DNA of 11,140 bases from a virus (taxonomy: Monodnaviria > Loebvirae > Hofneiviricota > Faserviricetes > Tubulavirales): the IMG/VR virus record IMGVR_UViG_2667527953_000001, one strand, 5' to 3'. Positions 103 to 11,140 of this stretch are shown here, piece after piece. A program made the position numbers and the translations under genes. The number at the start of each line of letters is the position of its first letter. Position 1 is the stretch's first letter. The notes under the pieces were generated by a model, which saw only the letters and a list, made by a program, of their open reading frames with translations, searched no databases and had not been told where the DNA came from.

Positions 103-243
103 ATGCACGACATGATTCTGGATTTACTAATGAAATACCTGATTGCCGGTAGTCTGTTCGGCATGTTTTTGTTCAGCGTCATAACAATAGTGTTGCCAAT
201 CGTCCTGAGGGCACACAATAAAATCAACAGAAGCAACGACTGA
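103..243 (+). CDS. Small hydrophobic membrane protein (46 aa), diverged paralog of the 8919..9074 product
   Basis: ATG at 103, TGA at 241-243; not in ORF track (too short). Translation MHDMILDLLMKYLIAGSLFGMFLFSVITIVLPIVLRAHNKINRSND has one predicted TM segment. Aligns with the 8919..9074 protein (shared ILDLL.K...GS..GM..FS.IT.VLP.V...HNK) although the DNA has diverged, which argues for selection on the protein. No clear Shine-Dalgarno. Confidence 0.4.
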   Translation: MHDMILDLLMKYLIAGSLFGMFLFSVITIVLPIVLRAHNKINRSND

Positions 244-252
244 ATGCACAAC

Positions 253-280
253 AGTGCGCACAATGGCGTTATGTATAAAA
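253..280 (+). promoter_or_regulatory. dif-like Xer recombination site (arm A of composite attP)
   Basis: AGTGCGCACAA-TGGCG-TTATGTATAAA resembles E. coli dif GGTGCGCATAA-TGTATA-TTATGTTAAAT (XerC arm, central region, XerD arm). Identity with copy 2 starts abruptly at 251. Confidence 0.55.
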
Positions 281-317
281 AGGCCGCTGCGGTGGAAAGT
301 ATCGCAGCGGCCTTTTC
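277..317. terminator. Bidirectional rho-independent terminator hairpin inside attP
   Basis: AAAAA-GGCCGCTGCG-(11 nt loop)-CGCAGCGGCC-TTTT: 10-bp GC-rich stem (282-291 / 303-312) flanked by an A-run and a T-run; lies between convergent pIV (minus) and the small ORF (plus). Confidence 0.7.
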
Positions 318-318
318 A

Positions 319-348
319 ACATAACGCATGTCACATTATGCGCACTGA
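319..348 (-). promoter_or_regulatory. Inverted dif-like site (arm B of composite attP)
   Basis: Minus strand reads AGTGCGCATAA-TGTGACA-TGCGTTATGT. The XerC-like arm (336-346) is complementary to 253-263 with one mismatch, and 319-326 is complementary to 267-274, so the single strand can fold into a forked hairpin. Confidence 0.5.
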
Positions 349-396
349 CGTTGTGGTAGGTAAACTGAGATGCCGCGTCCTGATAATCCCGGTCGG

Positions 397-2456: not shown

Positions 2457-3671
<1,215 letters not shown>

Positions 3672-3684
3672 TTACCCCGCAAAA

Positions 3685-4044
3685 TTACTTGCCAACATTA
3701 AGCCCATTTGATTTAAATAAATCATAAACCAATCGATACACTCTATCCTTATAAAGATATATGTATGAAATAAATTGAACATGGAGGATGATATTAAAGC
3801 AGTACTGAATATTTAAAGGCAGGTAACTGAATGCAACTACAATAACATCGAGTTTATTAACATCGGAGATTTGACGAATAATAAAATTGACGGCAGATAC
3901 AAGAGCATAATATGAAGTGTAGCAAAGACCAAGATAAGAAAGGAGCTTAGCCCATGCAACAGCTTTATCACCGATAACTCCTGCAATGAAACGTAGTGAT
4001 TTTAAAACAACATCAACAAAAAAAGCACCTAAAATGGCCCACAT
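3685..4044 (-). CDS. Minor coat protein pVI-like (119 aa, hydrophobic)
   Basis: Sits between pIII and pI as in Ff; ATG at 4044 overlaps the pIII TGA (TGATG), suggesting translational coupling; hydrophobic with several predicted TM segments; size close to Ff pVI (112 aa). Confidence 0.6.
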   Translation of the reverse strand: MWAILGAFFVDVVLKSLRFIAGVIGDKAVAWAKLLSYLGLCYTSYYALVSAVNFIIRQISDVNKLDVIVVAFSYLPLNIQYCFNIILHVQFISYIYLYKDRVYRLVYDLFKSNGLNVGK

Positions 4045-5408
4045 CAGAGTTTTACCTCACGTTCAAATAATGTACGGCGAGAAATAACAAAAACGCGTAA
4101 CATGGTTATCATATAAATAGCATATTCAAGAACAGAACGAACATAATCGTCATAAGCTTTTGCAAAATGGCTTGTATCAATCTTGAAATTAATAGCGCCA
4201 ATCAACGGAAGATCAAAGCTAAATTGTAAAATAAAAGGAAGAGCAGTTCCATTATTTGTATTTACCAGTTTGTCAATATTAACTGTAAGCCAATTGTTAT
4301 TATCATGACTCTCACTTCCCTGTCCTGGCAAGTAATGCGAAAGCTCCCCTAAAGGGAAATCCCCATCAGGCAAAGAAGAAGCTATATTCTGACTAATATC
4401 TTTAATACCATTGTCCAGTGAATTTAATGCATTATTCATATCAGCCTGAGAAACAGAAAAAGCATTATTTAAATCATTCACTGACACCCATATTGTTTTT
4501 AACCAGCCCAAAATACCATCAAGCCAGCCATTGTCATCGCCGGATGAGCCACCGGATCCTGAACCTGAACTACCGCTACCGGATGAACCGCCGGAGCCCG
4601 AGCCGGAGCCACCGCTACCGGATGAACCACCGGAGCCAGAACCTGAACCACCACTGCCGGATGAGCCGCCGGAACCCGAGCCGGAGCCACCGCTACCGGA
4701 TGAACCACCGGAGCCAGAACCTGAACCACCACCGGAACTGCCGCCGCCTGGGTTACCACCACCGGAACTGCCACCACCTGAGCTACCGCCATCCTCCTTA
4801 CCATCGGAGAATGCAGGATCTACAGCAACTGGTTTCCAGTCGGCAGTACAAACTGTATCATCATCGGGATTACAAATAAGAGGATTACCGGTTGCCTCAT
4901 AAATACACCCCTGCACATTAACATAACGGGTCCCGTCATCACCTTTATAAACATCAGAAAAAGTCATACCATCAAGAACCGGACGAGAAAGACAAATCTC
5001 GTCAGTTGGCGGCTTATTATATTCAGGTGTCAAATCCCCCTCACCACCCTGAAAAGCAAGGGTGCAGGCTGTCCACTTTTGCTTGTCTGAATCCCAGACT
5101 TTATATGCTGACCACCGGGCACGGACAAAAGACCCGACAGTCGAAGGTGCATTAACAGGCGTTGAAAGTGGCACACCACAATAATGAATTATTCCGGAAC
5201 ATGCGTCATAACTGCCCGAACCACAGAAAAGATGACCGGCCGCCCTGGCTAATTTAATCGACGTCCCCGCGTCCGAATAATCTGTCCTGCAGGATGAATG
5301 GCCTGCACACTGAACAAGTGCATCCGGATTTTCTTTCTCTTCAGCGAAAGAAAACGAGGAAAAGAACAAAAACAGAAGCGGAATAATAAAGTGAATCAAA
5401 CAAAACAC
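4044..5408 (-). CDS. Minor coat / adsorption protein pIII-like (454 aa)
   Basis: N-terminal signal-like hydrophobic segment, Cys-rich N-terminal domain, about 100-aa Gly/Ser linker (GGSGSGSGGSSGSGG units) and a C-terminal domain with a hydrophobic anchor, immediately after pVIII. The 5408 start is GTG with the AGGA directly adjacent; TTG three codons downstream has better spacing, so the exact start is uncertain. Confidence 0.7.
   Translation of the reverse strand: MFCLIHFIIPLLFLFFSSFSFAEEKENPDALVQCAGHSSCRTDYSDAGTSIKLARAAGHLFCGSGSYDACSGIIHYCGVPLSTPVNAPSTVGSFVRARWSAYKVWDSDKQKWTACTLAFQGGEGDLTPEYNKPPTDEICLSRPVLDGMTFSDVYKGDDGTRYVNVQGCIYEATGNPLICNPDDDTVCTADWKPVAVDPAFSDGKEDGGSSGGGSSGGGNPGGGSSGGGSGSGSGGSSGSGGSGSGSGGSSGSGGSGSGSGGSSGSGGSGSGSGGSSGSGSSGSGSGGSSGDDNGWLDGILGWLKTIWVSVNDLNNAFSVSQADMNNALNSLDNGIKDISQNIASSLPDGDFPLGELSHYLPGQGSESHDNNNWLTVNIDKLVNTNNGTALPFILQFSFDLPLIGAINFKIDTSHFAKAYDDYVRSVLEYAIYMITMLRVFVISRRTLFEREVKL
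4496..4800 (-). repeat. Internal direct repeats encoding the Gly/Ser-rich linker of pIII
   Basis: About 78-bp repeating units (for example ccgctaccggatgaaccaccggagccagaacctgaacc at 4613 and 4691); this explains the spurious Pro/Glu-rich antisense ORFs at 4418..4902. Confidence 0.8.
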
Positions 5409-5459: not shown

Positions 5460-5720
<261 letters not shown>

Positions 5721-5726
5721 TTAAAA

Positions 5727-5897
5727 TTAATTAACAGCATCACTGAACATCCGGCAGACCAGAGTGAAAATAACACCAAGACCAAAGCCAAGAAGCCAGC
5801 AGACAATCCAGACATAAAGAACGGACCAGTAAAGCTCCCCGTCCTGTACGCCAGAATTCAGTGCGGATAAAACACCGCTGAAATCAAATTCAGTCAT
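5727..5897 (-). CDS. Small hydrophobic protein (56 aa), candidate minor coat protein (pIX/pVII role)
   Basis: ATG at 5897 overlaps the end of the upstream small gene (ATGACTGA); one TM segment (WSVLYVWIVCWLLGFGLGVIFTLV); position just upstream of pVIII as in Ff. The ORF-track start at 5930 is GTG. Confidence 0.45.
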   Translation of the reverse strand: MTEFDFSGVLSALNSGVQDGELYWSVLYVWIVCWLLGFGLGVIFTLVCRMFSDAVN

Positions 5898-6030
5898 AAT
5901 AACGCTGAACAGTAATGCTTTGTGAGTCACAGGCGCGAATCAGTTTTATTCCGATGCCAAAACCTGAAGAAAATAAAATCATTGCAGGCGCAGCAAATAA
6001 AACAAAGTTCAGAAAATCAGCGTCAGACAT
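5890..6030 (-). CDS. Small hydrophobic protein (46 aa), candidate minor coat protein (pVII/pIX role)
   Basis: ATG at 6030 lies 4 nt after the TGA of the 141-aa ORF, with AAGGAAAAAGG upstream; TM segment FLNFVLFAAPAMILFSSGFGIGI. A longer form from ATG 6084 would sit inside the upstream gene and is less likely. Confidence 0.45.
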   Translation of the reverse strand: MSDADFLNFVLFAAPAMILFSSGFGIGIKLIRACDSQSITVQRYYD

Positions 6031-6034
6031 ATCA

Positions 6035-6460
6035 TCAGCCTTTTTCTTTACCTGCGGGCAGTGCACCCAGCGGCTGACCGTCAAAACGTTTCATGGAGCC
6101 GGAAATAAAACGATACCAGACACCATGACGTTCTGAGCCTGTCGCCCATGAGTTAACATCCACCGTGAGATAAACAGGTTTGCCCTGCAAATCAGGACAT
6201 GAATTAAAAAATTTAAAATCCTCCTCAGTACAGGAAAAGCGCTCATGCTCCTCACGGCGGACTTTTAATTTTCGGTCCTCATACGGATAGGCAATAACAA
6301 TGGCATATTTGGGTTTAGCCTCAGGGTTATAATGAGAACCCGTGGGTTTTAACTCCTCATCATTTATGACAGTGACGTGAATAAAATATCCCGCCATTGT
6401 CATGCCTGAGGTAAAACCCTCAGGGGAAGGAAACGGAAAACTGTCGTAAATTTGATTCAT
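6035..6460 (-). CDS. 141-aa protein in the gene-V position; possible ssDNA-binding protein, function uncertain
   Basis: ATG at 6460 with GAGGAG 8 nt upstream, directly after the replication gene. Contains LQGKPVYL, reminiscent of the QGKPYSL segment of Ff gVp, but it is much longer than typical gVp (87 aa). Confidence 0.5.
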   Translation of the reverse strand: MNQIYDSFPFPSPEGFTSGMTMAGYFIHVTVINDEELKPTGSHYNPEAKPKYAIVIAYPYEDRKLKVRREEHERFSCTEEDFKFFNSCPDLQGKPVYLTVDVNSWATGSERHGVWYRFISGSMKRFDGQPLGALPAGKEKG

Positions 6461-6490
6461 AAATCAGACTCCTCAATGTTAAAAATTCAG

Positions 6491-8638
<2,148 letters not shown>

Positions 8639-8827
8639 ATGAGCAGGAAAAGTATTGGTATAAGCAACGAGAGATATCTGAGAATAGAAAGAGCAGCCGT
8701 AGATATCACAGCCAAAACAGGAAAAGTCACAAAATGGTCGGAGATCGTGAATTATCTGATAGATGAATATTTAAACGATGCAAAACAAGATATGATTTCG
8801 AAAAATGAAATTACACAAAAAAAATAG
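8639..8827 (+). CDS. Small ribbon-helix-helix-like DNA-binding regulator (62 aa), candidate phage repressor
   Basis: ATG at 8639 with AGGAG 8 nt upstream. N-terminal KSIGISNERYLRIERAAVD...KWSEIVNYLIDEYL fits a beta-strand plus two helices as in Arc/CopG/MetJ. Divergent from the replication gene, like rstR versus rstA in CTXphi. Confidence 0.65.
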   Translation: MSRKSIGISNERYLRIERAAVDITAKTGKVTKWSEIVNYLIDEYLNDAKQDMISKNEITQKK

Positions 8828-9074: not shown

Positions 9075-9079
9075 GGTTC

Positions 9080-9107
9080 AGTGCGCACAATGACGTTATG
9101 TATAAAA
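9080..9107 (+). promoter_or_regulatory. dif-like site (arm A of attP, copy 2)
   Basis: AGTGCGCACAA-TGACG-TTATGTATAAA; same as 253..280 apart from one central-region difference (TGACG versus TGGCG). Confidence 0.55.
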
Positions 9108-9144
9108 AGGCCGCTGCGGTGGAGAGTATCGCAGCGGCCTTTTC
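9104..9144. terminator. Bidirectional terminator hairpin inside attP (copy 2)
   Basis: Same hairpin as 277..317 (one loop SNP, GGAGAG versus GGAAAG). Confidence 0.7.
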
Positions 9145-9145
9145 A

Positions 9146-9175
9146 ACATAACGCGTGTCACATTATGCGCACTGA
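9146..9175 (-). promoter_or_regulatory. Inverted dif-like site (arm B of attP, copy 2)
   Basis: Counterpart of 319..348 with one SNP (ACGCGTG versus ACGCATG). Confidence 0.5.
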
Positions 9176-9226
9176 CGTTGTGGTAGGTAAACTGAGATGC
9201 CGCGTCCTGATAATCCCGGTCGGCAC

Positions 9227-11140
<1,914 letters not shown>

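Follow-up and report, generated by a model that had tools for sequence, protein, structure and literature searches.

Filamentous phages of the Ff group (M13/fd/f1) encode the ssDNA-binding protein gVp in the slot that follows the replication initiator and precedes the minor-coat and major coat genes. What is done by the 141-aa protein whose gene occupies this slot in an E. coli prophage is the question raised by the locus analyzed here. The window, i.e., the whole stretch of DNA that was studied (11,140 nt; IMG/VR record IMGVR_UViG_2667527953_000001), consists of an array of filamentous (inovirus) prophage whose genes lie on the minus strand, in the order Rep, 141-aa protein, 46-aa ORF, 56-aa ORF, coat protein, pIII, pVI, pI (Zot), and pIV (Table 1). 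This is the Ff order, with the 141-aa gene in the gene V (gV) slot, as a previous sequence-only reading of the locus had claimed. That reading described the protein as atypically large and proposed that it might be a fused or a novel ssDNA-binding protein, or might have a different function altogether.

Table 1. Features of the prophage locus (window coordinates) and predicted structural elements of the 141-aa protein (residue numbers)
Feature	Position	Strand	Evidence or remark
CDS of the 141-aa protein	6035..6460	-	ATG-to-stop ORF; PHROG 30648 match, E 1.2e-95
Shine-Dalgarno sequence GAGGAG	6469..6474	-	Direct sequence reading; spacing to ATG 8 nt
Replication initiator (Rep), HUH nickase, Phage_GPA	6491..8590	-	Pfam PF05840, E 9e-49; phrog_91
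46-aa hydrophobic ORF, pVII-like position	5890..6030	-	RefSeq CDS in L001; sequence reading
56-aa hydrophobic ORF, pIX-like position	5727..5897	-	RefSeq CDS in L001
Major coat protein precursor	5460..5720	-	Weak phrog_1646 and phrog_17608 matches; homologous to coat-position proteins of relatives
pIII-like adsorption protein	4044-5408	-	Pfam/PHROG scans
pVI-like protein	3685-4044	-	Pfam/PHROG scans
pI/Zot protein	2457-3668	-	Pfam/PHROG scans
pIV secretin	9227-10435	-	Pfam/PHROG scans
62-aa putative regulator, divergent	8639-8827	+	Pfam/PHROG scans
Two inverted dif-like sites around a GC hairpin	9079-9176; second copy about 252-349		Sequence, DNA fold
Predicted β1	residues 21-31		
Predicted β2	residues 52-62		
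Predicted β3	residues 67-77		
Predicted helix	residues 79-86		
Predicted β4	residues 95-101		
Predicted β5	residues about 116-125; strand assigned in the model at 116-118		

The 141-aa ORF is a real gene under purifying selection. In addition to its start, stop, and ribosome-binding site (Table 1), it exhibits a dN/dS of 0.11-0.15 among the more diverged E. coli copies (pS 0.17-0.43), the values being taken from sufficiently diverged pairs in a set of 15 IMG/VR copies. Between Rep and the 141-aa gene there is a gap of 30 nt (stop codon to ATG), and 4 nt separate the stop of the latter from the next ATG; the RefSeq homolog of the window Rep, named 'replication endonuclease', begins at an internal start equivalent to window position 8491. 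By megablast, the prophage region was found in 40 of 5,426 complete E. coli genomes, in all cases on the chromosome, and many of these genomes are from human stool or clinical isolates. In the best-matching genome, that of strain 100416 (L001), two tandem prophage copies adjoin hipA, the 141-aa product is named 'hypothetical protein' by RefSeq (WP_032179869.1), and the 46-aa and 56-aa ORFs are annotated between its gene and the coat gene; neither of these two ORFs matched a family in the family scan. Megablast and tblastn searches of deposited phages returned no match. Identity with CUS-1/YpfΦ was considered and was set aside by description: a review (PMC4266046) has nothing like the 141-aa protein, and the window Rep is of the Phage_GPA type, ~700 aa in length, with the Vibrio phages VFJ and fs2 as its nearest deposited relatives.

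The window exceeds one prophage unit and contains tandem copies offset by about 8827 bp. The pIV secretin gene of the upstream copy is intact (402 aa). In the downstream copy (400-992), the N-terminal part of pIV is joined to the C-terminal part with an internal deletion of ~300 codons, and the first 145 bp at its 5' end occur three times in tandem (536-977, 99% identical), so that one prophage copy looks export-defective. A 339-bp tandem repeat fills the pI-pIV intergenic region (1031-2443; 4.2 copies, 97% identity) and is present in at least two copies in the other unit (10474-11140). Its G+C content is about 58-60%, as against 34-50% in the structural genes; it yields long spurious ORFs on both strands, and its copy number seems to be variable between prophage copies and strains. 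Shorter repeats include a 16-bp unit, TGCACAAATGCAATTG, present 2.2 times at 8562-8596, where the 62-aa regulator gene and Rep diverge; this unit may be an operator or an origin-associated iteron. Nested 39/78-bp and 30-bp tandem repeats (4540-4791) code for the Gly/Ser-rich linker in the pIII-like protein.

The mode of integration of this phage could be read from the sequence. Canonical dif is absent, within 3 mismatches, from both the window and L001, and the dif-like half-sites were spotted by eye, with subsequent checks by folding and against an empty site. They consist of XerC-type arms, GTGCGCA(C/T)AA, and XerD-type arms, TTATGT. In single-stranded form, the segment 9079-9176 adopts a long, centrally bulged hairpin (-40.2 kcal/mol, z = -10, 0/200 shuffles) and is a CTX-type attP, like the folded attP of CTXφ. 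Besides the window, the loci covered by these observations on attP and on integration in dif were L001 12690-12790 and L038 270-320. At the right end of the L001 array, phage sequence ends after ACATTATGCGCAC and host DNA follows, and prophage-free E. coli has canonical dif, ATTTAACATAATATACATTATGCGCACC, at the same place with the same flank after it. The array sits in the E. coli dif downstream of hipA, and its junction retains the XerC-arm side of dif. Because the position of the junction is that of canonical dif in the empty site, it was concluded that the phage integrates through XerCD/dif, plausibly via its ssDNA form.

Sequence searches with the 141-aa protein against Pfam, NCBIfam, PHROGs, and the PDB identified no curated family and no Pfam family. 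The sole strong match was phrog_30648, a cluster of 'unknown function', which aligns over residues 1-141 of 141 and is also matched at 5e-26 by the distant member P0020 of lineage L004. Pfam SSB (PF00436) gave no match at E≤1 in any of the 13 members or 8 distant members, and nothing was found in the literature on this family or its accession numbers. The HMM search that the sequence-only reading had proposed thus provided no curated functional family, but did provide a full-length PHROG match and a sub-threshold match to PF17426, which is considered below. The family is tiny: a profile search recovered 9 clusters among 1.84 billion representative proteins, word-indexed searches of 5.8 billion proteins recovered 17 and 23 entries, mostly from E. 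coli, and IMG/VR contains almost only near-identical E. coli copies of the gene. Homologs down to 25% identity stay full-length (131-146 aa), and family alignments reveal invariant aromatic and Lys residues as well as a conserved C-terminal motif, R-F-D-G-x-P-L, at 125-131, followed by a variable basic tail. The overall pI of the protein is mildly acidic (6.1), with basic character in the C-terminal third only, and neither a signal peptide nor a transmembrane segment was found in its sequence.

A second E. coli lineage of the family (L036/L037; CP027437, CP076709) encodes P0012, which is 57% identical to the 141-aa protein and has 196 member sequences; its prophage resides elsewhere on the chromosome, in the vicinity of folB and a GST gene, with IS110-type and other IS elements flanking, and a secretin gene was not visible in the stretch examined. 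In a metagenomic prophage (L003, 1153-5787), Rep carries an IS21-type element (transposase and IstB) inserted in its 3' part, immediately before the gene of the family member.

Among inoviruses, ssDNA-binding proteins are known for their high divergence. PHROGs contains four mutually unrelated inovirus families named 'single strand DNA binding protein' (1199, 5738, 1410, and 1144), and the lengths of such proteins span 87-144 aa: M13 gVp has 87 aa, VFJ orf104 and the Dolos ssDNA-binding protein 104 aa each, the pre-CTX RstB-like protein 106 aa, VGJ ORF112 112 aa, and the Pf1 gene 5 protein 144 aa. Because the Pf1 protein is of this length, a size of 141 aa is not atypical; the earlier description holds against Ff only, and even there the ratio is 1.6 rather than 'nearly twice'. 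In hhalign comparisons with a 21-sequence family alignment as the query (16 sequences for VGJ ORF112 and the Pf1 gene 5 protein), the probability was 0.3 against M13 gVp as a single sequence and 0.1 against a 3-sequence gVp alignment, 0.3 and 0.2 against 3 and 29 sequences, respectively, of the fs2/VFJ/RstB-like family (phrog_5738), 0.5 against the Pf1 gene 5 protein (phrog_1144), and 0.1 against VGJ ORF112 (DUF1293/phrog_1410). The Ff gVp profiles (PF02303/phrog_1199) were not matched by the 141-aa protein in Pfam or PHROGs, and M13 gVp, as a positive control, matched phrog_1199 at 6e-31.

The nearest deposited relatives of the window Rep, at ~30% identity, are those of VFJ, fs2, Vaf1, and Shewanella phage Dolos and the 'RstA-like' protein of pre-CTX, and in the three genomes examined (VFJ, Dolos, and pre-CTX) the gene next after Rep is annotated as ssDNA-binding or RstB-like; the VFJ record describes orf104 as similar to fs2 orf104. 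These phrog_5738 proteins resemble the 141-aa protein in being encoded directly downstream of a ~700-aa Rep, and pre-CTX, like the window phage, is a dif-integrating inovirus, but they are only 104-106 aa long, belong to a separate PHROG, and remain at the low hhalign probability given above for 29 sequences. The Pf1 gene 5 protein shares a length of about 140 aa as an inovirus ssDNA-binding protein, but there is no detectable similarity, and its extra length consists of a Pro/Gln/Ala-rich C-terminal tail, whereas in the 141-aa protein the extra length is predicted to lie in barrel loops and short termini.

Structure prediction with AlphaFold 2 (AF2) used 21 homologs, including distant members at 25-47% identity recovered by exhaustive profile search. 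With 13 close homologs, the pLDDT was 38; a usable model depended on the addition of the distant members, the 13 close sequences being insufficient. The best model from 21 sequences had a mean pLDDT of 75.3 and a pTM of 0.68, with core blocks 21-30 and 51-100 at pLDDT 87-91 and low confidence in loops L12 (32-51) and L45 (102-115) and at the C-terminal end. In this model the whole chain makes one domain, in which the L12 and L45 loops are long and the terminal extensions short, and the case that the protein is predicted to be a single OB-fold domain, in the order β1-β2-β3-α-β4-β5, is moderately strong, the alignment behind it being shallow.

A Foldseek search of the PDB with this model gave 8uzt_B as the best match (E 1.2e-3, probability 1.0, target-normalized TM 0.50) and nothing at E≤1e-3. 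The top 50 PDB matches were almost all ssDNA- or RNA-binding OB-folds, and comprised human mitochondrial SSB (8uzt, 6rup, 3ull, 1s3o, 2dud), bacterial SSBs, and PriB, along with OB proteins of the trypanosome editosome and a few from ribosomes, with probabilities of 0.9-1.0, E-values of 1e-3 to 3e-2, rmsd of about 6 Å, and TM of 0.39-0.41 (query-normalized) or 0.45-0.51 (target-normalized) over 107-127 aligned columns. In BFVD, the matches were phage SSBs and unnamed proteins, among them the ssDNA-binding protein of Thermus inovirus OH3 (A0A0M5N8A0), an inovirus SSB that had the highest target-normalized TM (0.61) but is 97 aa long, with 13% identity and an E-value of only 0.019. No unrelated fold competed in these searches. 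The structural matches to SSB, mtSSB, and PriB extend to strand order, the long L12 and L45 loops, and a similar domain size. In contrast to bacterial SSBs, the 141-aa protein has neither a Gly/Pro-rich linker nor an acidic DDDIPF-type C-terminal tip, its C-terminus (...GALPAGKEKG) being basic and variable across the family, and the likeness to SSB and PriB is limited to TM values of 0.4-0.5, with no PF00436 match.

These results bear on the proposal that the protein is a fusion. Because the structural matches span most of the chain, the protein is best regarded as one domain, and, the predicted model being a single domain, the N-terminal 90 residues, which had been thought to have no obvious counterpart, would form the first half of the OB fold rather than a fused extra domain, with residues 21-86 providing β1, β2, β3, and the helix. 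The GKPxY-like segment to which the sequence-only reading had drawn attention does exist, residues 93-97 of the 141 being GKPVY and opening predicted β4, but it fails as a cue to gVp: V96 is the sole invariant position in the family, K94 being replaced by R/Q/H and P95 by E/A, and in M13 gVp the GKPY sequence is at residues 23-26 of 87, in the DNA-binding wing. Judged from the alignment and the model, the two motifs are not equivalent and the resemblance to Ff gVp is coincidental. A second signal overlaps the first, in that PF17426 ('Putative_G5P') matches residues 85-122 of the 141-aa protein at 13.5 bits (E 0.08), where the gathering cut-off is 25 bits. This Pfam family has been reported for ORF 2 of small Rep_1-encoding circular DNAs, SPHINX/BMMF group 2 (PMC10378824). 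The weak match recurs in 10 of 13 close homologs (best E 0.006) and in none of the 8 distant members; because the distant members lack it, it is probably due to chance and its recurrences are probably not independent. That a novel ~90-residue N-terminal domain is joined to a C-terminal gVp-like segment marked by GKPxY, as these two signals together might suggest, is therefore considered highly improbable, given the single predicted domain, the poor conservation of the motif, the sub-threshold and unevenly distributed Pfam match, the hhalign probabilities of 0.1-0.3 against Ff gVp, and the 45 residues that follow the motif, which are too few for a gVp fold.

The suggestion of a different function altogether found no confident structural match to an unrelated family in the PDB or BFVD. 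It can be restated in a form compatible with the model, as OB-folds are functionally diverse: an OB-like barrel might bind a protein or ligand, modulate the host, or mediate superinfection exclusion and bind no nucleic acid, or the model might be wrong. This reading is regarded as improbable. While the Foldseek E-values are marginal, the overall pI is below neutrality, and no sequence family assigns a function, the structural neighbors are overwhelmingly ssDNA/RNA binders and not other OB classes, the aromatic and Lys residues are invariant, the gene is strictly tied to a rolling-circle Rep, and features of a secreted or membrane protein (signal peptide, transmembrane segment) were not detected.

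The best explanation, to which a probability of about 0.6 is assigned, is that this E. coli inovirus, which integrates at dif, has in the 141-aa protein its own ssDNA-binding protein, a functional counterpart of Ff gVp with a larger, predicted SSB/PriB-like OB-fold and a sequence family of its own. It shares with Ff gVp the genomic slot, an OB-type β-barrel (predicted in the case of the 141-aa protein), and the presumed job, but the two differ in length (141 vs. 87 aa), have no sequence or profile similarity, and have different structural surroundings, as gVp is outside the top 50 Foldseek matches and the neighbors of the 141-aa protein are SSB/PriB-type OB-folds. The other small ORFs scanned in the window phage are hydrophobic or virion-type, apart from the 62-aa regulator, and no match to a recognized SSB family was found among the ORFs scanned there. 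Following what is known of Ff and CTXφ biology, the protein would be translated from the Rep operon and coat the displaced viral strand made by the HUH Rep, thereby blocking its return to the double-stranded RF and passing ssDNA on to pI/pIV for export. Binding would involve the conserved aromatic and basic residues F26 (β1), K49/K51 (start of β2), W105 (L45 loop), and W115/Y116 (β5), and the C-terminal RFDGxPL motif is a candidate oligomerization or cooperativity contact. As the phage has a CTX-type folded attP, the protein may also tune the amount of free, folded ssDNA available to XerCD for integration. In CTXφ, this slot is occupied by RstB, which has been described as SSB-like and as necessary for integration (PMC3545932), and by analogy a dual role of the 141-aa protein in coating and integration is conceivable.

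Several results weigh against the ssDNA-binding reading. There is no significant similarity to Ff gVp, the fs2/VFJ/RstB-like proteins, the Pf1 gene 5 protein, VGJ ORF112, or Pfam SSB; the structural matches are moderate in E-value and rmsd, with TM of 0.4-0.6; the model depends on a shallow alignment and was poor with 13 sequences; and basic character is confined to the C-terminal third of the protein. A further objection comes from lineage L004, in which a member of the family is found together with true gVp homologs.

The comparison of lineages places this observation in context. In the window and in 9/9 sampled lineages, at identities down to 25%, the family gene follows a PF05840 Rep, immediately or with a single small ORF in between; the contigs examined were those of L002/L003, L004, L005, L027, L032, L033, L035, and L036/L037. 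In L004, two genes beyond P0020, there are two tandem paralogs (144 and 111 aa, 54% identical; 5529-6280), which stand at the head of the structural module. The 111-aa paralog belongs to the Ff gVp family (phrog_1199, E 3.5e-7), and the 144-aa paralog, whose own PHROG search gave no match, is tied to gVp only via its similarity to the shorter one. The likeness between L004 and L027 (65-70% DNA identity) is restricted to Rep, the small ORF, and the family gene; the similarity stops right after this gene, and the structural modules are unrelated. It was concluded that Rep and the family gene are inherited as one replication module, and that L004 is a mosaic of two inovirus lineages, with the breakpoint at the end of this module, in which a foreign structural module brought its own gVp. 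Since L004 encodes both, the family and gVp are not strictly alternative solutions. Their co-occurrence fits redundancy after recombination, and fits equally a Rep-linked role distinct from that of gVp.

A role of the latter kind would make the protein an accessory of the Rep module rather than a gVp: an OB-fold protein that binds ssDNA or Rep to assist or regulate rolling-circle replication, in the manner of PriB or gene X, or that chaperones the folded attP hairpin for XerCD integration, in the manner of RstB, packaging-type coating being performed by something else. It draws on the restriction of what L004 and L027 have in common to the replication module, on the two Ff-type gVp homologs heading an unrelated structural module in L004, on the presence of PriB among the structural neighbors, and on the CTX-type attP and dif location of the phage together with the need for RstB in CTXφ integration. 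Such a role is the main rival to the best explanation and a serious possibility but an unlikely one, as the ORFs scanned in the window phage and in 8/9 sampled lineages included no second candidate for ssDNA binding, module shuffling leading to redundancy explains L004 equally well, and the protein has no sequence relationship to PriB or to RstB-like proteins. If true, it would bear on the partitioning between XerCD integration and export in ssDNA-integrating phages. Rather unlikely as well is the idea that the family, instead of being the gVp equivalent, constitutes a separate, Rep-coupled class of inovirus OB-fold proteins that travels with GPA-type initiators and acts on the displaced strand before packaging; it could, for example, keep the CTX-type attP hairpin folded and accessible for XerCD, thus deciding between integration and export, or load or regulate Rep. 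A separate class, if real, would explain the coexistence with classical gVp genes in L004.

Overall, the observation made in the sequence-only reading is partly confirmed and its interpretation partly supported. What gained support is the option of a novel ssDNA-binding protein in the gV slot, and it did so at the level of fold, because structure prediction and fold search, the checks originally proposed, led to a predicted single OB-fold domain whose nearest neighbors are SSB, mtSSB, PriB, and phage SSBs. That such a protein should have a family of its own will be unsurprising to the specialist, since the divergence of inovirus ssDNA-binding proteins is well known. Identification of the 141-aa protein as the probable ssDNA-binding protein of this phage gives a testable functional annotation for a product labeled 'hypothetical' in RefSeq and of 'unknown function' in PHROGs, and would add one more sequence-unrelated family to the polyphyletic set of inovirus ssDNA-binding proteins represented by PHROGs 1199, 1144, 5738, and 1410.
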